Origin: a bacterium
GTDB taxonomy: Bacteria; Patescibacteriota; Patescibacteriia; Patescibacteriales; UBA12465
NCBI GenBank assembly: GCA_035400585.1
Contig: DAOMZR010000001.1
Coordinates: 63,347-127,346 of the forward strand
Direction of reading: 5' to 3'
DNA: 64,000 nt
Shown: one piece after another, positions 2,376 through 63,606 of the stretch
How the letters are laid out: each line of letters opens with the position of its first letter
Position numbering within the stretch: the first letter of the stretch is position 1
The notes under the pieces: generated by a model
Database searches by the model: none
Seen by the model: only the letters and a program-made list of their open reading frames with translations
Told to the model about the DNA's origin: nothing
Translations under genes and position numbers: made by a program

Positions 2376-3479
2376 ATGATTTGCATTAAAAGGAAGAGGG
2401 CCTTCACCCTCATCGAACTCCTAGTAGTAATAGCCATAATAGGCATACTAGCAACACTTGCAGTAGTAGCCCTACAACAAGCAAGATCTAGAGCTAGAGA
2501 CTCTAAAAGAATGGCTGACATGAAACAAGTTCAAACTGCTCTAGAACTGTTTTTTAATGAAAATGGCAGATACCCTACTACTGATGAATGGAGTAGTGGC
2601 ACCATTATATCTTCTTCTAGCGGTGAAACATTTATGTATTCCATTCCTTCTGCCCCTTCTCCTGCCGATGGTGATTGTCTAGAAGCCTCTAATACTTATG
2701 TCTACACCCCTCAAAACAATGGAGCCAGTTATACTATTGATTTTTGTACCGGCAAACAAGTATCAGATTTACCCGAAGGAGCCAAACAGATGACACCAGG
2801 AGGAATAATTTTAGCTAGTGGTGGTTCAGGTGGAGGTGGTGGAACAACTACTTGTGAGCCTGCTTGTGGCGATGGTTACAATTGTGTAGATGGTTCTTGT
2901 GTTTTAGCTGGTAGTGATATTTATCACGTTGCAACAATTGCTGACAACTCAGTACCGTATTTAAAAAATTCTTATAATATTGCTATGAGCGGAAATTATA
3001 TCTTTATTACTGATTTTAGCAATCATTTGGAAGTTTTAGATATATCTAATCAAGGTAATCCAACACATAGCAATATGTTGAGTAATTTATATTCTCCCAG
3101 AACTATTTTTATTTCTGGTAATTTCGCTTATGTTGGTGGTGGGGAGGGTTTAATAATTATTGATATTTCTGATCCATCAAATCCGATTCAGCGAGGAACC
3201 GCCAACTTTGGCAATCTTAGTAATTCAAATTCTAGATTCTATGTTTCCGGTAATTATGTCTATAGCGTTGTTGATCAGTATTTTACAATTGTTGATGTTT
3301 CTGACCCTAATAATCCTTCTTTTGTAGCCGAGTTTAATAGATTTGATGACTTTAATCCAATTCCAGTTCTCGCTCAACCACAAGGAATAGTTATTAACGG
3401 GAATTATGCTTATGTTATAAATAATGGTTATAATCCAGGGGCGGGTATTTATAATGCGTTAGAAGTTTTTGATATTTAA
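2376..3479 (+). CDS. Type IV pilin-like N-terminal module fused to an LVIVD-repeat beta-propeller, first segment (ends at an in-frame TAA)
   Basis: Basic leader MICIKRKRA is followed by [17 protein letters not shown], a prepilin cleavage/methylation-type motif with Glu at +5. Next come a Gly-rich stretch and the 4-Cys linker CEPACGDGYNCVDGSCV. Four blades of the form SGNYxYV...L.V.DIS.P.NP follow. Confidence 0.8.
   Translation: MICIKRKRAFTLIELLVVIAIIGILATLAVVALQQARSRARDSKRMADMKQVQTALELFFNENGRYPTTDEWSSGTIISSSSGETFMYSIPSAPSPADGDCLEASNTYVYTPQNNGASYTIDFCTGKQVSDLPEGAKQMTPGGIILASGGSGGGGGTTTCEPACGDGYNCVDGSCVLAGSDIYHVATIADNSVPYLKNSYNIAMSGNYIFITDFSNHLEVLDISNQGNPTHSNMLSNLYSPRTIFISGNFAYVGGGEGLIIIDISDPSNPIQRGTANFGNLSNSNSRFYVSGNYVYSVVDQYFTIVDVSDPNNPSFVAEFNRFDDFNPIPVLAQPQGIVINGNYAYVINNGYNPGAGIYNALEVFDI
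3477..3479 (+). other. Single in-frame TAA separating 2376..3479 from 3534..4964 (same reading frame)
   Basis: Both ORF start coordinates are divisible by 3. The read-through text is LEVFDI*NPLAISLVTRIVNGGAGGMVID. The stop occupies the Ser position of the recurring D(I/V)SNP blade motif. Confidence 0.9.
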
Positions 3480-3533: not shown

Positions 3534-4964
3534 ATGGTGATTGATGTTCCTACTAACCTAACCATTTCTGGTAATTATTTGTATTTCGTTAACACTAATT
3601 ATTATGCCAATAGTGGTAGCATGGATTTGTCTCTGGAAATTATGAATATTTCTAATCCAGGGTCACCTGTGCATGTTAATAATTTTAATTTAAATAATAC
3701 GGAGTTTCCGGTTGGAATGAAAATAACAAACAATAAAGCTTATATTGCCTCGGTTGATTATGCTCTACAAGATTCAGGAACAGTTACAACCATTGATTTA
3801 AGCAATGTTAGCAATCCTGTTAAGTTGGATGAGATAAGAAATGGTGAAGATGGAGCAGAGATTTTTCCCACCAGTGGACTGGAAGTTTCTGGTAATTATG
3901 TTTATATTAGCAATTCCAATTATTCGGTTGAGGTTTTAGACGTCTCTAATCCTTCACAAATACAACATCATGATATTATAAGACACGGAGAAGAAGGAGT
4001 GTTGTTGGAGTATCCTGCCACGGTTTTTTATTCTAATGATTATGTTTATGTTGGAAGTGATGTTGGTTTACAAATATTCAATGTTTCCAATAAAAGCAAT
4101 CCGATTAAGGCTGGAAATATAGTTGATAAAAATAATAATGCCAAGTTAGACTCTCCTTACGGCATAGATGTTGTTGGTAATTACGCTTATATAGCATCTT
4201 ATCAGAGTGATGCTCTGGAAATAGTTGATATTAGCAATAAGGCCAATCCAGTGCATAAAGGATTTTTATCCAACTTGTCTGGCGGAGCAAAGCTTAACGG
4301 TCCATATTCCGTAAAAGTAAAAGATAATTACGCTTATCTTGTTAGCTATTATGATAGTGCCATGGAAGTTGTTAATGTTTCTGATCCAGCCAATCCTGTC
4401 CATGCAGCAAATATTGTTAATAATTATTCAACTGTTAATCTTTATCATCCTTATTCAATTTTTATTTCCGGCAATTATGCTTATGTGGCTGGGGTTAGGG
4501 GTTTGCAAATAATAGATATATCCAACCCATCTTCACCAATTGCTAAAGATAGTTTTTTGGATGGCGATGATGATATTTATTTTGAGCCTTGGTCAGTTTT
4601 TGTGAGCGGAGATTATGCCTATTTAGCTAGTTATTGGCCAGGCAAATTGGTTATTTTAAATATATCAGATCCAAATAATATTGTTTTTGCTGGCGAACTA
4701 AATCATGGAACAGATAATGCTAATTTAGAATGCGCTAACAGTATTTATGTTTCTAATAATTATGCCTATATAACCAACGATTGTGATTATGCTTTGGAGG
4801 TTGTTAATGTGTCTAATCCATCAACGCCAACACACGTTACTAAAATAGATAATTCTACTGGTGCCGAATTTGAAGGGCCAATATCTGTTTCGGTTAACAA
4901 TGGCTACGCTTTTATAGCCTCTAATTATAATAATATTTTTGAAGTAATAAAAGTTCCTAATTAA
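3534..4964 (+). CDS. LVIVD-repeat beta-propeller, continuation of 2376..3479 (no leader of its own)
   Basis: Ten further blades are present, for example SGNYVYISNSNYSVEVLDVSNPSQ, VGNYAYIASYQSDALEIVDISNKANP and SGNYAYVAGVRGLQIIDISNPSSP. The frame matches the upstream ORF. There is no signal or leader sequence. Confidence 0.7.
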   Translation: MVIDVPTNLTISGNYLYFVNTNYYANSGSMDLSLEIMNISNPGSPVHVNNFNLNNTEFPVGMKITNNKAYIASVDYALQDSGTVTTIDLSNVSNPVKLDEIRNGEDGAEIFPTSGLEVSGNYVYISNSNYSVEVLDVSNPSQIQHHDIIRHGEEGVLLEYPATVFYSNDYVYVGSDVGLQIFNVSNKSNPIKAGNIVDKNNNAKLDSPYGIDVVGNYAYIASYQSDALEIVDISNKANPVHKGFLSNLSGGAKLNGPYSVKVKDNYAYLVSYYDSAMEVVNVSDPANPVHAANIVNNYSTVNLYHPYSIFISGNYAYVAGVRGLQIIDISNPSSPIAKDSFLDGDDDIYFEPWSVFVSGDYAYLASYWPGKLVILNISDPNNIVFAGELNHGTDNANLECANSIYVSNNYAYITNDCDYALEVVNVSNPSTPTHVTKIDNSTGAEFEGPISVSVNNGYAFIASNYNNIFEVIKVPN

Positions 4965-21634: not shown

Positions 21635-23794
21635 ATGATTTCCAACGCAAAAAAAAGAGGGTTCACCCTCATCGAACTTCTGGTAGTAATAGCCATTATT
21701 GGCATATTAGCTACTTTAGCGGTAGTAGCTCTACAACAAGCTAGAAGTAGGGCCAGGGATTCCAAGAGAATGGCTGACATGAAACAGCTTCAAACAGCCA
21801 TGGAATTGTTTTTTAGTGAAAATGGTCGTTATCCAACCACTGAAGAATGGAATAGTGGTGCTATAATTTCTTCTTCTAGTGGAGAAACGTTTATGTATTC
21901 TATTCCAACTGCTCCATCTCCAGCTGATGGAGATTGTACTATGGCTTCAAATTCTTATACTTATATTCCTCAAAACAATGGAGCTAGTTATACTATTGAT
22001 TTTTGTATTGGTAAACAGGTATCTGATTTGAATGCTGGCTACAAACAACTTGTCCCTGGTGGAATAATTGATTTTAGTGGTAGTGACCCAGTTGACAGTG
22101 GTGGTGATTCAACTGCCAATTCTTCAGAAAGGTTTTTGGTTGTGAATTCATCAATTCCTGGTGGTGTTAGAGGTTTGCTTGAATCTTCTGATGGTGGTTA
22201 TGTGTTTGGATCATTTACACCAACAAATGGTTATGATGCTATTTTAGCTAAAACAGATTCTTCTGGTAATGAAATTTGGAGAAAAACTTTTGGAGATTCA
22301 AGTGAACAAGCAGTTAGTTTTGTTATGGAGGCATCAGATGGTGGTTATGTTTTGCTTGGATATACAAGAACTTACGGAACACCTGATTATTATCTTGTTA
22401 AAACAGACAGCTCTGGTAATGAGCTTTGGACAGAGGTCTTTGATGCTGGATTAAGGGAATATCCTAGTTTTATAATAGAAACTTCAGATAATGGTTTTCT
22501 TATTTCTGGATCAACTGATTATGGCACCAAAGGTTCTTATATAGTTAAAACAGATTCTTCTGGCAACGAATCTTGGAATACAATATTAAGCGATGGATAT
22601 GTTTCATCTATAGAGCAAGTTAGTGATGGATATTTGCTTTTTATGACAACCCCATATGTTTATGGTGTTGATCCTAGTTATTTTGTAAAAAAAATAAATT
22701 TTTCTGGAACCGAAGAATGGACAGAGCAAGTTTTTACTTCTTATTCATCAGCCGGAGGATTTAGAGGTTTCTTATTGCCAGATGGAGGATATATTTTTGT
22801 TATAGTAACAGATTCTCTTGAAATTCGTTTATCTAAATTTGATTCTAATTTTTCAGAACAATGGAGCAAATACTACAGTGGTTTAAGTTCTTCTAACTTA
22901 GATATTTCTTCTTTATTAAGTGATAGTGATGGTGGCTATGTTATAACGGGAAGTGTTTCTGGAATGGATTTTGCTGATATTTATTTGATTAAAACTGATA
23001 GTGCTGGTAATGAGTTGTGGAGAAAGAAATATATGGGATTTAATATGGAAAGTACTTATCCCAATTCAAGTATAGTAGCTTCCAATGGTGGGTACTTGCT
23101 TGGTGGCACAGTTTGTGACCCTTCTTATTCTAACTGTTCAACTTTATTAATAAAAACAGAATCCGACGGAACATATAATTGCGTTGATTCAGAATGGGTT
23201 CCAGATGAGAGTACTTATTCTGGGATACAAACACAGACTAGTGATTGTGGCAATACCAGAGATTATGCTGGAACCTGTGTGCCAGATTGTTCTGGAAAGA
23301 ACTGTGGTGAGGATGGATGCGGTGGTTCCTGTGGAACTTGCACTTATCCAGATGTTTGTACGGATGGTGTATGTACTTATGTTTGTTTTTTGTCTGGTAC
23401 AAAAATATCTATGGCTGACGGCAGCTTGAAAAACATTGAAGAAGTTAAGATCGGTGACATGGTTAGAAGTTATGATTTTGTTTCTAAAAAAATTGTTCCA
23501 GCTGAGGTGTCAGATTTAATATATCATGAAGCCGAGAAGGTTGACTCTTATTTAATTATAAATAATTTCTTAAAAGTTACACCTAATCATGAAATACTTA
23601 TAAATGGTTACTGGCAAGAGATAGGTGATGCTCAAATCGGAAGCGTTTTACAATCAGAATCGGGAAAACCAGTATTTATAAATTCTATTGAAAAGATTGA
23701 AGATCATGTACCTACCTATAATATAGAAGTGAAAGATTATCACAATTATTATGCCGATCATATATTAGTTCATAATATTCCCGGCGGTTGTTAA
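21635..23794 (+). CDS. Type IV pilin-like module + 7-blade beta-propeller + Cys-rich region + C-terminal Hint (intein-like) domain
   Basis: Leader MISNAKKRG then [17 protein letters not shown]. Seven repeats have the form DGGYV..G......[13 protein letters not shown]. The Cys-rich stretch is [36 protein letters not shown]. The Hint domain runs from [14 protein letters not shown] to ILVHN. Confidence 0.85.
23384..23776 (+). other. Hint / bacterial intein-like domain (aa 584-714 of the 21635 ORF)
   Basis: Block A is [14 protein letters not shown] (Cys1). Block B is VTPNHEIL (TxxH). Blocks F/G are [21 protein letters not shown]. The residue after HN is Ile, and only IPGGC follows before the stop. 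Confidence 0.8.
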
Positions 23795-29483: not shown

Positions 29484-29849
29484 ATGAACAAAATCAACGA
29501 ATATTTAAATTCTAGAGGTGATAATGTTATTTTAGTATATATTAATAACTTAGCAAAAACTGGTCGACTAGATCATGCTAAAAAAATATTAAAAACAATA
29601 GAAAGATTGGAAAATAATGAACTAGGATTGTTATTAAAAATTAAATTAGTTAAGAAATTAAAAGGGTTTAATAATATATTCGAACTTATTATTAATTGGA
29701 AAGACGCTAATTATAGAATATTTTTTTCTATTATAGATAACATTTTTTGTTTAACTAATATTTTTAATAAGAAAAGACAAAAAACTTCAATAAAGGAAAT
29801 AAAACTAGCAGAAGTAAGAAAAAAAGAAATTATAAATAATTTAAAATAA
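29484..29849 (+). CDS. Type II toxin, HigB / Gp49-like (RelE/ParE superfamily)
   Basis: The C-terminal pattern NYRIFFSIIDNIFCLTNIFNKKRQKTSIKEIKLAEVRKKE is typical of Gp49-like toxins. The gene lies directly upstream of an XRE HTH gene. Confidence 0.7.
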   Translation: MNKINEYLNSRGDNVILVYINNLAKTGRLDHAKKILKTIERLENNELGLLLKIKLVKKLKGFNNIFELIINWKDANYRIFFSIIDNIFCLTNIFNKKRQKTSIKEIKLAEVRKKEIINNLK

Positions 29850-29850
29850 T

Positions 29851-30162
29851 ATGAGTGTTAATAATTTAAAAAAAGAATTATTTAAAAACAAAAAGTTCAA
29901 AAAATATTATAACAATTCTTCCGATTTAAGTCTGGAAATATCAGAAAACATTATTAATGCCAGACTAAAAAATGGTTTAACCCAAAAAGATTTGGCCGAG
30001 TTATTAAAAACTAAACAATCCAGTATTTCTCGACTAGAAAAAGGTTTGTCTTTGCCTAGTTTGAGTTTTTTATTAAAAATCGCTGAAGCTTTGGGAATGA
30101 AATTGTCGGCTCCAAAACTTTTTACATATCCCGTTAGTGTCTCCTGTAAGAGTAATGTTTGA
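29851..30162 (+). CDS. XRE-family HTH antitoxin (HigA-like)
   Basis: LKNGLTQKDLAELLKTKQSSISRLEKGLSLPSLSFLLKIAEALGMKL. Confidence 0.8.
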   Translation: MSVNNLKKELFKNKKFKKYYNNSSDLSLEISENIINARLKNGLTQKDLAELLKTKQSSISRLEKGLSLPSLSFLLKIAEALGMKLSAPKLFTYPVSVSCKSNV

Positions 30163-36045: not shown

Positions 36046-36732
36046 ATGTCAATTACCATTCTTTCTATAGCAATTTTAATATTTTCCATCATAGTTCATG
36101 AAGTTTCTCATGCTTGGATGGCTGATAAACTAGGCGATTCAACTGCTAGAACTTTGGGTCGTTTAACCTTAAACCCGATTCCACACATTGATCTTTTTGG
36201 TTCAATTTTATTGCCATTATTTTTTGTCTTGAGCGGGTCAAATTTTTTATTAGCTTGGGCCAAGCCAGTTCCTTATAATCCTTATCTCATAAAAGACAAA
36301 AAGTTTGGTGATTTAAAGGTTGCTTTAGCTGGTCCTGGTTCTAATATTATTTTAGCTTTATTTTTTGGATTAATTGCTCGATTTATTCCTCTGGCAACTA
36401 ATTTAAAGCAATCGTTGACCGTTTCTTATTTTTCAGGTGATTCTAATTTTATTTTAAGCAATATGTCCGGTAATTTTTTGGTGGTTATTTTTGTAATGTC
36501 TATTATTTTTTGTTTTCTGAATTTATTATTAGCTTTTTTTAATTTAGTCCCAATTCCTCCACTAGATGGCTCTAAAATATTGGCCAATTTTTTACCAGCT
36601 AAAGCTAAAATGAAGTTTTTTCTGTTTGAAAGATATGGAATGTTTATTCTTTTATTTTTTTTAGTTCTAGGATTGTTTGAGCTTCTGTTTTATCCGCTAA
36701 TTTATTCTTTTTCTTTTATTATCGGTATCTAG
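36046..36732 (+). CDS. Site-2 protease family (peptidase M50) membrane metalloprotease
   Basis: HEVSHAWMADKLGD (HExxH), GRLTLNPIPHIDLFGS, and NLVPIPPLDGSK. Confidence 0.85.
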   Translation: MSITILSIAILIFSIIVHEVSHAWMADKLGDSTARTLGRLTLNPIPHIDLFGSILLPLFFVLSGSNFLLAWAKPVPYNPYLIKDKKFGDLKVALAGPGSNIILALFFGLIARFIPLATNLKQSLTVSYFSGDSNFILSNMSGNFLVVIFVMSIIFCFLNLLLAFFNLVPIPPLDGSKILANFLPAKAKMKFFLFERYGMFILLFFLVLGLFELLFYPLIYSFSFIIGI

Positions 36733-36735
36733 TTT

Positions 36736-38919
36736 ATGACTACAATTATTAAAAAATCAAATAAAAAAAAATTTCAGGCTTTTACTCTTATTGAACTTTT
36801 AGTTGTTATAGCCGTTGTTGCCATAATTGCTACTTTGGCTGTTATAGCCTTACAACAAGCCAGATCTCGTGCTCGTGATTCAAAACGCATAGCTGATGTT
36901 AAACAGGTTCAAACAGCTTTAGAATTATTTTTTAACGAGCAGGGAAGATACCCTACTGTGGATGAATGGAATAGCGGATCTTTAATTACTTCTACTAGTC
37001 AGATATTAATGCAAGACATCCCAGTTGCCCCATATCCAGCCGATGGCTCTTGTGATTCTAATCAAAATAATTTCTATTATGAGCCAAGCGAAGATTATTC
37101 TACTTACAGTCTTTCCTTTTGTTTGGGAAATGATGTTTCTGATTTATCTGAAGGGTTAAAATGTTTAACTCCCGGGGGAATATTAGATTATGATTGTTCG
37201 AGTGGTAGCTCTGGTGGGGAAGGTGAAATAAGTGGTAATATTTGTTATCCCGATTGTCAATCTGGCTATATTTGTCAAACCGGTTCCTGTGTAGTTGATG
37301 CCTTTGAATGTGGTCAGTCCGTCTCCTACAACGGCTATACCTATCCAACAGTAGCTATTGGTAGTCAATGTTGGTTCAAAGAAAACCTCAAAACCGATAA
37401 ATTCAAAAATGGTGATTCTATTCCTAGAATTACTGGAAGTTGGGGCGGAACAACAATTTCTCCTTGGATATCTTATCATAACAACTCAGCTTATTATCCA
37501 GTTTATGATTTTTATCCAGGCGTTGATTCTTACGGTTATGTTTATTCCTCTCATGCCGTAATTGATCCACGTGGTTTATGCCCAGAAGGTTGGAGGGTTG
37601 CTACTCAAAGTGATTTTACTACTCTACTATCTAGTATTGGAACATACAATGCTTACAACCTGCGATCTTGTCGCCAAGTTAGTTCTCCTTTGGGTGGTTC
37701 TTGTGCTACTACCGAACATCCTCGTTGGGGTTCTGATACGGTATATGGAACCGATGACTTAGGTTTTTCTCTTTTACCAGGTGGACATAAGTATTCGACT
37801 CAATGGCCCTATTTTGGAACTGGTTACTATATTTGGACCTCAACTCCTAATTCTTTAGGCACTAGTTTTTATGAAATATCAAATACTGGTGGCAGTACTA
37901 TTGGTACAGCTGGAACAACCATAATTGATTCTATTTATGGTCGCTATATTAGATGTGTTAAAAAAACTGATCTTTCGCCAAAAACTATTCCAACAGTTAC
38001 AACTTCTAGCGTTACTAATATTAGTTCTACCAAAATATCTTCTGGCGGAAATGTAACTGCTGATGGAGGCACTCCTGTTTTTACCAAAGGACTTGTTTGG
38101 AGTCAGGGAAACAATCCTTTAATTGGTGATGGTGCTTCTAAATTTTTAAATACCACTTCTACCGGTAGTTCTTTTAGTTTGGATGTTTTCTATGGACTTG
38201 AACCGGGCAAAACTTATTATATTAGAGCTTATGCTGTTAATGAGGTTGGTATAGCTTATGGTAATGTTGTTTCTTTCACTACCACTAACCCATGTTCTGG
38301 ACTATCTTCCGTCTCCTACAACGGCTATACCTATCCAACAGTAGCTATTGGTAGTCAATGTTGGTTCAAAGAAAACCTCAAAACCGATAAATTCAAAAAT
38401 GGTGATTCTATTCCTAGAATTACTGGAAGTTGGAGTGGAATTACTACGCCAGTCTATGATTTTTATCCAGGTGTTGATTCTTACGGCTATGTTTATTCAG
38501 CTAACACAGTGATTGATTCTCGTGGTTTATGCCCAGAAGGTTGGAGGGTTGCTACTCAAAGTGATTTTACTACTCTACTATCTAGTATTGGAACATACAA
38601 TGCTTACAACCTGCGATCTTGTCGCCAAGTTAGTTCTCCTTTGGGTGGTTCTTGTACTACTACCGAACATCCTCGTTGGAATTCTAATTCTAATTATGGA
38701 ACTGATGACTTAGGTTTTTCTCTTTTGCCGGGCGGTAATAAATATTCAACTACTTGGAATTATTTTTTGACTGGCTATTATGTTTGGACTTCAACACTTG
38801 ATGGACCTGGAACGAGTCTTTATTATTTTGTAAATACTGGCGGCAACTCTCTTGGTAGTCAAATGACAAATCTAACGTCGGTTTATGGTATGTATACTAG
38901 ATGTATTAAAAGTGATTAA
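36736..38919 (+). CDS. Type IV pilin-like module + FISUMP lectin-like domain + Ig-like spacer + second FISUMP domain
   Basis: Leader [15 protein letters not shown] then [17 protein letters not shown]. The 4-Cys linker is [17 protein letters not shown]. The block [33 protein letters not shown] ... [18 protein letters not shown] ... GFSLLPGG ... YYIWTST ... IRCVK occurs twice, which is the Fibrobacter succinogenes major paralogous domain pattern. Confidence 0.85.
36778..37058 (+). repeat. 281-bp 5' cassette, 280/281 identical to 38975..39255 in the next gene
   Basis: Direct alignment of the two stretches shows a single mismatch (37020 C versus 39217 T). Identity ends abruptly after TGTGATTC. 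Confidence 0.9.
37318..37443 (+). repeat. 126-bp block identical to 38308..38433 within the same gene
   Basis: Both copies run from TCCGTCTCCTACAACGGCTATACC to ATTACTGGAAGTTGG. The flanks are diverged. Confidence 0.9.
37570..37728 (+). repeat. 159-bp block, 158/159 identical to 38521..38679 within the same gene
   Basis: Both copies run from CGTGGTTTATGCCCAGAAGG to CATCCTCGTTGG. The single difference is 37705 G versus 38656 A. Confidence 0.9.
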
Positions 38920-38944
38920 ATATATCATCTTATTAAAATTTAAT

Positions 38945-40834
38945 ATGATTGTTCAAAATAAAACAAACAAAAAAGCTTTTACTCTTATTGAACTTTTAGT
39001 TGTTATAGCCGTTGTTGCCATAATTGCTACTTTGGCTGTTATAGCCTTACAACAAGCCAGATCTCGTGCTCGTGATTCAAAACGCATAGCTGATGTTAAA
39101 CAGGTTCAAACAGCTTTAGAATTATTTTTTAACGAGCAGGGAAGATACCCTACTGTGGATGAATGGAATAGCGGATCTTTAATTACTTCTACTAGTCAGA
39201 TATTAATGCAAGACATTCCAGTTGCCCCATATCCAGCCGATGGCTCTTGTGATTCAACTACTAACAATTTTTATTACCAACCCAACGGAGATTATTCTAA
39301 TTATTCAATATCTTTTTGCTTGGGAAATGATATTTCCGGTTTGTCAGATGGTTTAAAATGTATGACACCCGGAGGAATTTTGGAAGAAGATTGTCTTCCA
39401 GAATCAGTCCAACCAGAAGTTGTTTGTGAACCTGCTTGTGGGGCAGGGTATGTTTGCAGCGAGGAAGCTGTTTGTGTTATAGACTTTGAAAATGATGGAC
39501 AGAATCTTATACATAATTGTGGTAACGAATCCGGTGTTACGCCCGGAACAACTTGTGGCGGTGGTGTTGTTTTTTATAATGGCACAGACATCTATTCCGG
39601 CGGAAATATCATTTTAATTGCAGCAGCTAAAAATGCTTGGTATGCCTGGAATAATAACAGTACTGATGATCCAGCCACAATTTGGGGTTGTTATAATACT
39701 CTAATAGGTGGTACTAGTCAGGAAATCGGTTCAGGTAAAAACAATACCAATTTAATAATTGTTAATTGTGCAGAATCGGGAGCTGCTAAAAAAGTTGATG
39801 AATATACCGATGGTTTTTATACTGATTGGTTTTTAGCTTCTTCCGAAGAAATGAAAAGATTTAGAAGTTATAGGGGCCAAGCTGACTTTGTCAGAAACAT
39901 GACCTGGACTTCTTCGGAGGTGTCTAATATTGGGGCCTATTCTGTTAGCATGAACGATGGTAGCGCATCTAATTACTCAAAATCCAATAATGTTTATTTT
40001 AGACCAGTAAGAATGATTAAATATAATCCAGGCGTTCCAAAATTAAATACAATTTCAGTTGAAAATATAACCGGAAATACAGCAACGATAAATGCAGAGA
40101 TAAGTAATGAGGGCAGCTCTAGTGTTATTGAAAGAGGTTTCGTTTGGAGTCTTAATCCTAATCCGACAACGAACAACAGTAAACTAGTTGTTGGTTCTGG
40201 TGTTGGACAATTTTCTGGCCAACTAACCGGTCTTAGCTCCGTTACTAAATATTACGTTAGAGCCTATGCAATAAATAGTAATGGTTTGGCTTACGGTGAT
40301 AGCATGTCTTTTACAACCGTTTATTCTGAATGTTTACCGAGTGCTTCTTTAGGAAGTGTTTGTGGCGGTGGTGTTGTTTTTTATAATGGCACAGACATCT
40401 ATTCCGGTGGAAATATCATTTTAATTGCAGCAGCTAAAAATGCTTGGTATGTTTGGAATAATAATAGTACCGATGACCCCACATCTATTTGGGGTTGTAA
40501 TTATAGCTTGATGGGTAGTGCCAACCAACAAATTGGTGCTGGCAAAAATAATACTGATTTAATAGTCGCTAATTGTGCCGAATCTGGGGCCGCTAAAAAA
40601 GTTAGTGAATATAATGATAATTTTTACACTGATTGGTTTTTAGCTTCGTCCCAAGAAGCTTTAGAATTTAGAAAGTATAGAGCCCAGGCTTCTTATGCTA
40701 GAAATTCTTTTTGGACATCATCAGAGGTTTCGGATAATGGCGCTTATAACCTAAGAATGGACAATTCGTCTCTTTCTAATCATTCAAAAAATAATCAAAA
40801 TAATTTTAGACCAATTAGATCAGTTAAATATTAA
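38945..40834 (+). CDS. Type IV pilin-like module + DUF1566-like domain + Ig-like spacer + second DUF1566-like domain
   Basis: The start was set at [11 protein letters not shown] followed by [17 protein letters not shown]; the track ORF starts 60 nt earlier, inside the previous gene. The linker is [18 protein letters not shown]. The block [10 protein letters not shown] ... IGSGKNNT ... [11 protein letters not shown] ... WTSSEV ... FRPVR occurs twice. Confidence 0.8.
38975..39255 (+). repeat. Partner copy of the 281-bp pilin 5' cassette (see 36778..37058)
   Basis: Same alignment as for 36778..37058. Confidence 0.9.
39554..39644 (+). repeat. 91-bp block, 90/91 identical to 40361..40451 within the same gene
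   Basis: Both copies run from TGTGGCGGTGGTGTTGTTTTTTATAATGGCACAGAC to GCTTGGTATG, with one C/T difference. Confidence 0.85.
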
Positions 40835-40863: not shown

Positions 40864-40892
40864 TTGACAATAATCCCAATTATCTATATAAT
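40864..40892 (+). promoter_or_regulatory. Consensus sigma70-type promoter (TTGACA -17- TATAAT) upstream of the infA / r-protein / rpoA block
   Basis: TTGACA at 40864-40869, an exact 17-nt spacer, and TATAAT at 40887-40892, about 100 nt before the infA ATG. Confidence 0.65.
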
Positions 40893-60217: not shown

Positions 60218-61843
60218 ATGTTTAGAAAAAATAAAAAAGCCTTCACTCTCATTGAATTACTAGTAGTGATAGCCATTATTGGTATACTAGCCACTTTGGC
60301 CGTAGTGGCTCTACAACAAGCCAGAAGCAGGGCTCGTGATTCTAAGCGTGTGGCTGATGTTAAACAAGTTCAAACAGCTCTGGAATTATTTTTTAATGAA
60401 AATGGTAGATATCCTACTAATGAAGAGTGGGATTCTGGGTCTATTCTTTCTTCTACTACAGGTGAAGTTTTTATGCACAACATTCCTTCTGCTCCAACCC
60501 CAGCTGATGGGGACTGTTTAGAAGCTTCCAATACTTATGAATATGTTCAAATAAATAATGGATCATCTTATGAAATATCTTTTTGTTTAGGAAAACAACT
60601 TTCTAATTTACCTGATGGACCAAAATGTTTAACTCCCGGAGGTATTATTTCTAGCGATTGTTCAACTGAAAGATATGTCGCACCCGAATATACCGAAATA
60701 AAATATGGAGCATTATATAATTGGTATGTTACTCAAGATGTTAGACTTATACCAGAAAATATGAAAAACAAGGGATGGGATGTTGGAACAGATGCACAAT
60801 GGATATCTCTAAGAGATTATGGTGGTGGCAGTCCTGCAGTTTCAAGAAAATTAAAAACCACAGGGACTGTTTATTGGAACAGTGACAACGGAACTGATAA
60901 TTTTAAGTTTAATTGGAAGGGTAGTGGTGTTAGAAATTTAGACGGGTCTTTTCAGTCTGTTAGAGAGTTTAGTTCTATATATGGAAAAACAAATTGGTAT
61001 GGTCTTTATTCTGGTTCCGATCAAACTTTTTATAGATATTCATACGCGACAATGTCTCCCTCTCAGGGAAGATCTATTCGTTTGGTTAGATCGGCAAATA
61101 CAGAGGAATTATCACTTGAAGATGGTTCTTACGTTGATCCTTATATCGGGAATAATGGTTATGTCTATAGAGCTGTTAAAATAGATGATAAGATATGGTT
61201 AGCAGAACATTTGGCAGAAACAAAATGGAATGATGGTAGCGATATTCCAGTGGTTACTGATAACTCGCAATGGTCTAAGGGTGGTAGATTTGATTATACT
61301 GATTGGTTTCTTCCAAGTGAAAATGAATTAGCCCTAGTTTATAACAACATCAAAAATCAAGGAATAGGATCTTGGTCTGGTGAATACTGGAGCTCTACTG
61401 AAGTAGATGCAAACAATGCTCGTAAAATTAATTTTGTTTATGGAACAGCTGGAAATTATCCCAAGGGAAGTGGTGGTATGAGTAAAAGGCCTGTTAGAAA
61501 ATTCACCTTAAGTGAGTCTAGTCCAAGTTATTCTGTTAGGGATATCGGTCCGGCCGGTGGTTGGATATTTCATGTTGTAGATAATGGTAATAATACTTGG
61601 GATTATTATGAGGTTGGGAAAAACGATGTTGTTTCTGCTTCAACTGCTTGGAGTAGCATAACGAATGTTTTGATAGGTACTACCGAGTCTTCTGTGGGTA
61701 GTGGGTTTTCTAATACTTTAGATATTATTAATCAGCATGGTGTGAGTGGCAGTAGTGCCGCTAAGAGTTGTGATGACTATTCTTATACTAGGCCAGAGGG
61801 ATTGATGTGTTATTATGGTAACAATAAAGATCTTTACGAGTAG
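60218..61843 (+). CDS. Type IV pilin-like module + FISUMP-like domain + FISUMP/DUF1566 hybrid segments
   Basis: Leader MFRKNKKA then [23 protein letters not shown] marks are YGALYNWY ... SIRLVRS. YRAVKIDDKIWLAEHL is a FISUMP start. DUF1566 marks are YTDWFLPSENELALVYNN ... YWSSTE ... RPVRKF. Confidence 0.8.
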   Translation: MFRKNKKAFTLIELLVVIAIIGILATLAVVALQQARSRARDSKRVADVKQVQTALELFFNENGRYPTNEEWDSGSILSSTTGEVFMHNIPSAPTPADGDCLEASNTYEYVQINNGSSYEISFCLGKQLSNLPDGPKCLTPGGIISSDCSTERYVAPEYTEIKYGALYNWYVTQDVRLIPENMKNKGWDVGTDAQWISLRDYGGGSPAVSRKLKTTGTVYWNSDNGTDNFKFNWKGSGVRNLDGSFQSVREFSSIYGKTNWYGLYSGSDQTFYRYSYATMSPSQGRSIRLVRSANTEELSLEDGSYVDPYIGNNGYVYRAVKIDDKIWLAEHLAETKWNDGSDIPVVTDNSQWSKGGRFDYTDWFLPSENELALVYNNIKNQGIGSWSGEYWSSTEVDANNARKINFVYGTAGNYPKGSGGMSKRPVRKFTLSESSPSYSVRDIGPAGGWIFHVVDNGNNTWDYYEVGKNDVVSASTAWSSITNVLIGTTESSVGSGFSNTLDIINQHGVSGSSAAKSCDDYSYTRPEGLMCYYGNNKDLYE

Positions 61844-62811: not shown

Positions 62812-63606
62812 ATGGAACAAATAAAGGAATTAAGAGAAAGAACTGGTGCTGGAATGGTTGATTGTAAAAAAGCCCTAGATGAAGCTGGAGGAGATATAGA
62901 TAAAGCTATTGAAATTTTGAGAAAAAAGGGAATAGCCAAGGCAGCTAAAAGAAGTGAAAGAGATGCAGCTGAAGGTATTATCGTTGTTGATGTTAATAAT
63001 GACAAAACAGAAGCTTATGCAGTGGAATTAAATTCAGAAACTGATTTTGTAGCTAGAAATGAAAAATTTCAAGAATTAGCCAAACAGATATTAGAGGTTG
63101 TTAAAAACAACAAACCAGCCTCAGAAGAAGAATTGTTAAAGGCAAAATTAAATGATTCTACAGTTGAAGAAAATATTAGTAATTTAAGCGGCGTTATTGG
63201 TGAAAAACTAGCCTTAGGTAGATTTTCTGTTATTTCTGGCCAAACAGTTGCTTCTTATTCTCATTTAGGCGGTAAAATTGGTGTTTTGGTGGCTATTGAT
63301 CAACCAGGAAAAGATGAGTTAGCTTCAGATATTGCCATGCATGTTGCCGCTGCTAATCCTCGTTATTTAAAAAGCGAAGATGTTCCTAGCGCTGAAACCG
63401 ATAAAGAAAAAGAAGTTTATAGAGAACAGTTAATTAAAGAAGGCAAACCAGAAAATATGATTGATAATATCATGCAAGGTAAAATTAAAAAGTATTATTC
63501 AGAGGTTTGTTTGCTAGATCAAGAATATATCAAAGACGACAAGAAAAAAGTCAGTGATATTTTAGCTGGTTCTTCAATTTCTAAGTTCGTTAGATTATCT
63601 TTGTAA
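62812..63606 (+). CDS. tsf: Elongation factor Ts
   Basis: IKELRERTGAGMVDCKKALDEAGGDIDKAIEILRKKG ... ETDFVARNEKF. Confidence 0.95.
   Translation: MEQIKELRERTGAGMVDCKKALDEAGGDIDKAIEILRKKGIAKAAKRSERDAAEGIIVVDVNNDKTEAYAVELNSETDFVARNEKFQELAKQILEVVKNNKPASEEELLKAKLNDSTVEENISNLSGVIGEKLALGRFSVISGQTVASYSHLGGKIGVLVAIDQPGKDELASDIAMHVAAANPRYLKSEDVPSAETDKEKEVYREQLIKEGKPENMIDNIMQGKIKKYYSEVCLLDQEYIKDDKKKVSDILAGSSISKFVRLSL

Follow-up and report, generated by a model that had tools for sequence, protein, structure and literature searches.

Two adjacent genes on the forward strand of a 64-kb stretch of a Patescibacteriota genome (64,000 nucleotides [nt], positions 63,347 to 127,346 of contig DAOMZR010000001.1; hereafter, the window) very likely represent a long-established tandem pair encoding type IV pilin-like adhesins, a 281-bp segment of which is held in concerted evolution by gene conversion. 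The two genes, starting at positions 36736 (gene 1) and 38945 (gene 2), share this segment, here called the block, near their 5' ends. As judged from site patterns in two lineages of related strains (A and B), the 281-bp tract was transferred nonreciprocally between the two genes after these lineages had split, and further ectopic and allelic recombination took place at the locus. Within the tract, the paralogs of one genome are closer to each other than to their orthologs, and at its boundary synonymous divergence takes a step and the grouping of the sequences becomes incongruent, a combination that identifies conversion between paralogs.

Identity and limits of the repeated block

The two copies of the block (36778 to 37058 and 38975 to 39255; offset, 2,197) match at 280 of 281 bases, the sole mismatch being a C at 37020 opposite a T at 39217, which leaves two perfect runs of 242 nt (36778 to 37019) and 38 nt (37021 to 37058). 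Both edges are sharp. On the 5' side, the leader-peptide codons of the two genes are unrelated (57% nucleotide identity), and on the 3' side, identity to gene 2 drops from the very next base to 101/141 (72%; 37059 to 37199), in a region that still encodes the same homologous pilin module, with 72% amino acid identity. The difference in mismatches between the block (1/281) and the sequence that follows it (40/141) is highly significant (Fisher test, P = 4e-20).

Copy 1 opens at the Ala(-1)/Phe(+1) codons of the cleavage site, closes at Cys-Asp-(Ser), and encodes the alpha-1 helix with the alpha-beta loop, plus the first strand. The 3' edge thereby cuts the pilin globular fold just past its first conserved cysteine, with four of the five predicted beta-strands and some 46 further conserved codons of the pilin module lying 3' of the block, and with the head domains starting only about 85 codons beyond the edge. 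Because the block ends (at residue ~104 to 108) inside the pilin fold, it cannot be equated with a stalk in front of the heads.

Synonymous divergence

Nonsynonymous and synonymous divergence (dN and dS) were calculated per segment by the Nei-Gojobori method for all five paralogs in the window. For the tandem pair, the block (93 codons) yielded a dS of 0.015 (1 of 65.7 sites) and a dN of 0, versus a dS of ~2.0 (proportion of synonymous differences [pS], 0.70) and a dN of 0.18 in the 47 codons that follow within that pilin module. Every other pair of paralogs had a dS of 1.0 to 1.9 in the block codons, at 71 to 90% amino acid identity. With pS values of 0.59 to 0.70, the chance of finding at most one synonymous difference in 66 synonymous sites is 1e-24 to 1e-33. 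Protein-level purifying selection cannot explain the identity of the block.

These values bear on an earlier reading of the window, made from its sequence by a model and referred to here as the original prediction. Its description of two copies differing at a single base, with identity that stops sharply at the end of the block, was accurate, and the calculation that it had proposed, dS per segment across the five paralogs, sets the block (0.015) apart both from what follows it (~2.0) and from the other paralogs (1.0 to 1.9). Its statement that the same module in the genes at 2376 and 21635 is about equally conserved in protein sequence and differs at many third-codon positions held, with one qualification: the synonymous changes are indeed there (dS, 1.39; 80% nucleotide identity), but the two proteins are 90% identical in the block codons, against 100% for the tandem pair.

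Related strains and site patterns

Related strains were gathered by exact-protein look-ups and from the members of protein clusters. Lineage A consists of four assemblies, namely, that of the window, L002 (ERZ795061), L094 (ERZ795044), and L012 (JGI 3300025866); lineage B, ~96 to 97% identical genome-wide, comprises L004 (GCA_046128295.1), L013 (GCA_040364335.1), L003 (GCA_964444855.1), L005, and L006. The two-gene structure was reproduced in independent assemblies, which stem from different samples and pipelines (ERZ795064, ERZ795061, ERZ795044, JGI 3300025866, GCA_046128295.1, and GCA_040364335.1), and the C/T difference at 37020/39217 was phased alike in all lineage A assemblies. At site 38989, the window has a T and its three sister assemblies have a C.

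Site patterns were scored in an alignment of the two window copies (W_g1 and W_g2) with two copies from lineage B (B4_g1 and B4_g2). This comparison with related strains, which the original prediction had also suggested, gave a clear answer: the block groups by genome and the sequence after it groups by ortholog. In the block, the paralogs agree and the genomes differ (pattern aabb) at 10 sites, and the orthologs agree (abab) at none, the remaining variable sites being private to one lineage B copy (16 sites) or of pattern abba (1 site). From 37059 to 37199, by contrast, no aabb site was found against 29 abab sites, together with 2 sites private to one lineage B copy and 11 others (abaa, 5; abac, 4; abcb, 2). 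This flip in topology at the block edge, seen with lineage B (L004 and L013; Fisher test, P = 1.6e-9), leads us to concerted evolution by gene conversion.

Overall identities follow the same division. The block is 99.6% identical between gene 1 and gene 2 of the window, versus 92 to 94% between the window and its lineage B orthologs, whereas just outside the block paralog identity is 72 to 74% in both lineages. Since the lineage B copies are 94% identical in the block (17 differing sites) and only 74% identical just outside it, an older homogenization with the same 3' limit took place in that lineage as well; the near-identity in lineage A stems from a more recent event, and homogenization is episodic. 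The 27 sites in the block that vary between the lineages are mostly third-codon positions. As for the direction of transfer, 11 variable sites favor gene 2 as the donor and 5 favor gene 1. Finally, the gene 2 block of one lineage B strain, L006, is itself a mosaic, being A-like at 36939 to 36996, gene 1-like at two sites, and B-like elsewhere, and is followed by A-like sequence (98.5%).

Proposed course of homogenization

We propose that a short tract, bounded by the prepilin cleavage site and by the first cysteine of the globular pilin domain, has been copied repeatedly between the two genes by ordinary homologous recombination, which might have occurred within the chromosome, between sister chromosomes, or through incoming DNA that paired with the wrong copy. 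Each new tract would halt at the same limits of homology, and the edges would be sharp because the flanks (57% identity in the leader and 72% after the block) are too diverged for strand exchange. Strong purifying selection on the N-terminal polymerization helix might meanwhile keep the segment ready for recombination. As an outcome, and possibly a benefit, both head-bearing pilins would offer the same polymerization module to one assembly machine. RecA was not among the scanned open reading frames (ORFs) of the window, although no search was aimed at it.

Several points weigh against gene conversion as proposed here. The copy-specific phasing inside the block rests on the assemblers, and the collapse of assembly bubbles might have masked a small number of differences between the copies or given rise to variants of the head domains described below, in which a patch of one repeat equals the other. 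Only two lineages were available, which limits what can be said about the number, direction, and timing of events. The homogenization could also be a neutral by-product, the benefit of a shared module being one that we infer. Moreover, in a survey of 80 metagenomic pilin loci, none of the 23 other loci with two or more adjacent pilins had a 5' block with more than 95% identity, the best 5' match being 90% over 173 nt; as 0 of 23 loci show it, the 281-bp pattern is an occasional outcome and no general rule for tandem pilins.

Strain variation in the head domains

Downstream of the pilin module, each gene encodes two related head domains, of the FISUMP family in gene 1 (D1 and D2) and of the Lcl_C type in gene 2. 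D1 and D2 share two perfect runs, of 126 nt (37318 to 37443 and 38308 to 38433) and 135 nt (37570 to 37704 and 38521 to 38655), on either side of a divergent patch in D2 (38434 to 38520). In L002, L012, and L094, this patch is replaced exactly by D1 sequence. Over 22.2 kb, L094 differs from the window only in this replacement and at the synonymous block site 38989; L002 and L012 carry seven to eight further, mostly synonymous substitutions in the fibronectin type III (FN3)-like domain. A search of the window for a donor of the seven single-nucleotide polymorphisms (SNPs) of the FN3 region (37977 to 38213) was negative, and another strain is their probable source. Between the two Lcl_C domains of gene 2, nucleotide identity is 76% in lineage A and 98 to 99% over 480 nt in two lineage B assemblies. 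Two further variants were not relied on: a version with one FISUMP domain (L003) was set aside, because it stems from a scaffold with an N gap in the gene that mixes A-like and B-like segments, and a version with three FISUMP domains (L005), from a contig at 4x coverage, was treated as unconfirmed.

The heads do vary, by recombination between their own internal repeats. Among the four lineage A assemblies, every substitution or indel within the ~22 kb from 26736 to 48919 lies inside the two tandem genes (37977 to 38520 and 38989), and the remaining ~18 kb is identical. Ectopic recombination, which seems to act on the duplicated head domains as well as on the block, makes the locus the apparent main site of strain-to-strain variation. 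With the differences confined in this way to two pilin-adhesin genes, the locus is likely a fast-evolving interface with a host or substrate and should provide useful strain markers.

Alternative explanations

It is conceivable, if unlikely, that the tandem locus serves as a contingency locus for host attachment in an episymbiont. Under that scenario, the block and the head repeats would be kept, close to the ComEC gene, as homology for frequent ectopic and interstrain recombination, which would reshape the heads (through loop patches, domain number, and imported alleles) and so alter host range, with the block acting as the upstream arm for the import of head alleles.

We consider it very unlikely that head exchange is programmed or selected, with the shared block as a recombination handle in a cassette-type antigenic variation system, which was the role that the original prediction had given to what it called a recombination-competent stalk. 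Several features would suit such a system: recombination is active at the locus, variation between strains is concentrated in the two genes, and head content varies (the D2 patch, the homogenized Lcl_C domains, and the versions with one, two, or three FISUMP domains); in addition, an allelic breakpoint falls within the block in one lineage B strain, and ComEC is encoded 1.2 kb upstream. The expected machinery and products were nevertheless missing. A tblastn search of the window found no silent or truncated copies of block, post-block, head, or FN3 sequences, only the five complete genes; no guanine quadruplex (G4) motif (G3+N1-7 x4) was present on either strand of the window; inverted repeats were limited to AT-rich ones of chance quality; and the called genes within 10 kb included no recombinase or reverse transcriptase. 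In all of the 8 independent assemblies and 13 database variants of the proteins, FISUMP heads belonged to gene 1 and Lcl_C heads to gene 2, and no junction of leader 1 with body 2, or of leader 2 with body 1, was seen. The geometry is equally unfavorable. The block stops ~85 codons short of the heads, within the pilin fold, no 3' homology arm is shared (the FN3-like domains are 32 to 33% identical in amino acid sequence), and a crossover between such one-sided direct repeats would delete the heads of gene 1 and not swap them. Finally, what has been converted is the constant part and not the variable part.

That the block was collapsed or consensus-smoothed during assembly, or that one of the genes is chimeric, strikes us as highly improbable. 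The contig of L005 does end 83 nt into the gene 2 block (L005 4845 to 4927), that of L003 (8789 to 9000) has a gap of 100 Ns inside the gene 1 block, and bubble collapse could erase a few real differences; however, breaks and gaps of this kind at low coverage are as expected for a true repeat. Several independent assemblies, on the other hand, have both ORFs intact and the C/T difference in the same phase, and the lineage B copies, which differ at 17 sites, were assembled with the same architecture. A single assembly path, moreover, uses both unique heads (leader 1, block, FISUMP body, leader 2, block, Lcl_C body), and collapse cannot turn 72% identity into 99.6%.

We give hardly any credence to a very recent duplication of the pair or of its 5' end without conversion, the second of two origins that the original prediction had offered. 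The genes are in tandem and have the same architecture (pilin, Cys-rich linker, head, FN3-like domain, head), as a duplication would produce. A recent duplication of the whole gene is excluded, however, because the rest of the same pilin domain is saturated (dS, ~2; dN, 0.18), and the leaders are unrelated. In addition, the two genes occur in each lineage, and their bodies are orthologous and diverged; it follows that the duplication, as opposed to the identity of the block, is older than the lineage split. The dS of ~2 outside the block and the topology flip refute recent duplication, and the saturated 3' side and that same flip bear out the other origin offered, gene conversion.

Finally, an RNA or DNA element conserved within the 281 bp of both genes, for which nothing specific speaks beyond the identical synonymous sites, can practically be dismissed, because synonymous sites vary freely between the lineages (the block differs at 15 to 22 mostly synonymous sites between A and B), the lineage B copies differ at 17 sites, and the same module is saturated with synonymous changes in the three other paralogs.

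Comparison with known systems

Among bacteria, tufA and tufB are an example of paralogs that evolve in concert through partial gene conversion. Partial conversion between paralogs has been surveyed across prokaryotes (PMC6053082), and the Helicobacter pylori bab genes have been reviewed in this respect (PMC5483490). The babA/babB/babC genes (PMC5483490) resemble the present pair in that paralogs are closer than orthologs over a delimited tract with sharp synonymous steps, in that the products are surface adhesins, and in that the events are episodic and nonreciprocal. They differ in that the tract described here is a one-sided one of 281 bp, affects only the 5' part of the mature protein, and lies in tandem, co-oriented pilin genes of a Patescibacteria genome; head-swapped chimeras like the alleles of babA/B were not seen.

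In the Neisseria pilE/pilS system, many silent copies, truncated at the 5' end, serve as donors for conversion of the variable part of the one expressed gene, and a G4/small-RNA element starts the process (PMC2188579, PMC3547852, and PMC13463697). Both cases involve gene conversion in a type IV pilin gene with a constant N-terminal and a variable C-terminal part and a transition near the first cysteine of the disulfide region. Here, in contrast, neither gene is truncated and both are probably expressed, conversion affects the constant N-terminal part, and silent copies and G4 motifs are lacking in the window.

The shufflon of the IncI plasmid R64 switches the C-terminal part of PilV through site-specific inversion by Rci at short sfx repeats. 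It likewise joins a constant pilin N-terminal part to alternative adhesive C-terminal parts, but at the present locus everything lies on one strand, and there are neither inverted repeats nor a nearby recombinase. A diversity-generating retroelement also finds no counterpart: no gene called in the 10 kb to either side matched a reverse transcriptase family, and the differences between repeats involve all bases and an indel, unlike the adenine-specific changes of such retroelements.

Type IV pili of the Saccharibacterium TM7x bind the host and have been implicated in attachment and competition (PMC12206443). TM7x is, like the organism studied here, an ultrasmall episymbiont-type bacterium with several pilin genes, but that work concerned pilus function in a cultured strain, without head-bearing paralogs or conversion between paralogs, whereas our analysis is confined to sequence. 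In the library searched, we found no paper describing pilin gene conversion in Patescibacteria. The tandem pair is therefore a new example of a known process, as partial conversion between paralogous genes for surface proteins is known in bacteria (PMC5483490, PMC6053082, and PMC2188579); its value lies in being a population-supported case of concerted evolution in an uncultured lineage whose surface biology is little known. On the practical side, short-read assemblies break at the 281-bp and head repeats, acquire gaps there, or may be threaded wrongly through them, and domain counts from metagenome-assembled genomes need long-read confirmation.

The pilin paralog family

Five genes in the window, starting at 2376, 21635, 36736, 38945, and 60218, open with the same module of ~150 residues (Table 1). 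All five match PF07963 and TIGR02532, with weak matches to families of the GspG/PilA type, and a short basic leader precedes the cleavage/methylation motif (G or A before the cut and FTLIE after it, with Glu5), which is directly visible in the sequence. In an AlphaFold2 model of residues 1 to 165 of gene 2 (predicted local distance difference test score, 88), a helix at 14 to 65 is followed by five strands, and the top seven Foldseek matches in the PDB were all pilins or pseudopilins, at weak E values (0.02 to 0.45). By motif and predicted fold, the paralogs qualify as type IV pilin or pseudopilin-like proteins with a class III signal peptide. No prepilin peptidase and no pilus assembly ATPase or platform protein was found among the scanned ORFs of the window.

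Stand-alone pilins of ~145 amino acids with the same module are common in Patescibacteria. In a homolog search with the N-terminal 193 amino acids, the closest outside match (62% identity) came from "Candidatus Falkowbacteria", and no near-identical stalk was seen on a foreign head, which is a weak negative given that the proteins' own cluster was also missed. A search of genome contigs with the stalk protein returned only five distant pilins (35 to 44% identity) and no genome of this species, and an exact 51-mer from an invariant part of the block had no match in metagenome contigs.

The heads differ among the paralogs. Sequence searches of the PDB with the two head types, FISUMP and Lcl_C, turned up no relative of solved structure, and the label "lectin" consequently derives from Pfam family names only. 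A Cys-rich motif (C-x-P-x-C-x3-Y-x-C-x4-5-C), which had no family match, follows the pilin module and precedes the heads in g2376 (2850 to 2900), gene 1 (37240 to 37300), and gene 2 (39420 to 39480). The C terminus of g21635 matches PF07591 PT-HINT (2.7e-8; amino acids 594 to 713) and the intein C-terminal region TIGR01443 and ends in VHNIPGGC; a pilin with a putative C-terminal domain of the autoprocessing type is out of the ordinary. Directly after g2376, with its LVIVD-repeat head, lies a second LVIVD-repeat protein of 476 amino acids without the pilin N terminus (3534 to 4964, forward strand).

Organization and surroundings of the tandem genes

Gene 1 encodes, in order, a prepilin leader, the type IV pilin module, the Cys-rich linker, FISUMP domain 1, an FN3-like domain, and FISUMP domain 2; gene 2 has the same order, with Lcl_C/DUF1566-like domain 1 and Lcl_C-like domain 2 as heads. 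The stop codon of an M50 peptidase gene (36046 to 36732) sits 3 nt before the start of gene 1, and the spacer between gene 1 and gene 2 measures 25 nt. The only perfect sigma-70 consensus found lies downstream of gene 2, and none lies before gene 2. Because of the short spacer and the position of this sole consensus, gene 2 is probably cotranscribed with gene 1; both genes are complete and lie in a single operon-like row. The consensus itself (TTGACA, 17 nt, TATAAT; 40864 to 40892, forward strand), just upstream of infA and ribosomal protein genes, would mark the end of the pilin transcription unit. Other neighbors are the genes for L28 and ComEC. The window is part of ENA ERZ795064 NODE_7 (216,680 bp; coverage, 101). 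The GC content is 29.7%.

Table 1. Coordinates of the tandem pilin genes, their parts, and the other paralogs in the window
Feature	Position	Strand	Evidence or remark
Gene 1 (727 amino acids)	36736..38919	+	ORF; Pfam N_methyl, Fib_succ_major x2 (5e-55); TIGR02145, TIGR02532
Gene 1 leader-peptide codons, not common to gene 2	36736..36777	+	Alignment
Converted block, copy 1 (amino acids 15-108 of gene 1)	36778..37058	+	Identity, dS 0.015, dN 0, site pattern
Rest of gene 1 pilin module (disulfide-loop region, 4 predicted strands), unhomogenized	37059..37197	+	dS ~2.0; groups by ortholog
FISUMP head domain 1 (D1), gene 1	37306..37971	+	Pfam/TIGR families, tblastn
FISUMP head domain 2 (D2), gene 1, mosaic with D1	38308..38919	+	Perfect runs shared with D1
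Divergent patch of D2	38434..38520	+	14 substitutions and 39-nt deletion versus D1
Gene 2 (629 amino acids, ATG at 38945)	38945..40834	+	ORF; Pfam, TIGR families
Gene 2 leader-peptide codons	38945..38974	+	Alignment
Converted block, copy 2 (amino acids 11-104 of gene 2)	38975..39255	+	Identity, dS, site pattern
Rest of gene 2 pilin module	39256..39394	+	dS, alignment, predicted structure
Lcl_C-like head domain 1, gene 2	39530..40054	+	Pfam, tblastn
Lcl_C-like head domain 2, gene 2	40352..40834	+	tblastn, sequence comparison
Paralog g2376: pilin module and LVIVD repeats, unconverted comparator	2376..3479	+	Family matches, dS
Paralog g21635: pilin module, beta-propeller repeats, C-terminal Hint domain, unconverted comparator	21635..23794	+	Family matches, dS
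Paralog g60218: pilin module, FISUMP and Lcl_C, unconverted comparator	60218..61843	+	Family matches, dS

Some differences between the lineages fall just outside the homogenized tract or elsewhere in the region. The gene 1 leader (36736 to 36777, compared with L004 10001 to 10042) differs at 13 of 42 nt between lineages, the lineage B leader being MVITNKKLSQKKPQ, while the gene 2 leader differs at 1 of 30 nt and the adjoining M50 peptidase gene is 97.7% identical. From 26204 to 50259, a comparison with L003 and L004 showed identities of 99.7% for ComEC, 100% for L28, and 99.9% for rpoA, alongside 95.5% for RF1 and 94.8% for a methyltransferase; this gene-by-gene mosaic suggests that the two lineages have often recombined at the allelic level. 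Lastly, lineage A carries a pair of genes encoding Gp49 (HigB-like) and a helix-turn-helix protein at ~29484 to 30162 (forward strand), where L004 has an NYN-domain gene instead and from which L003 lacks the pair, so that the region appears to be a small variable islet.

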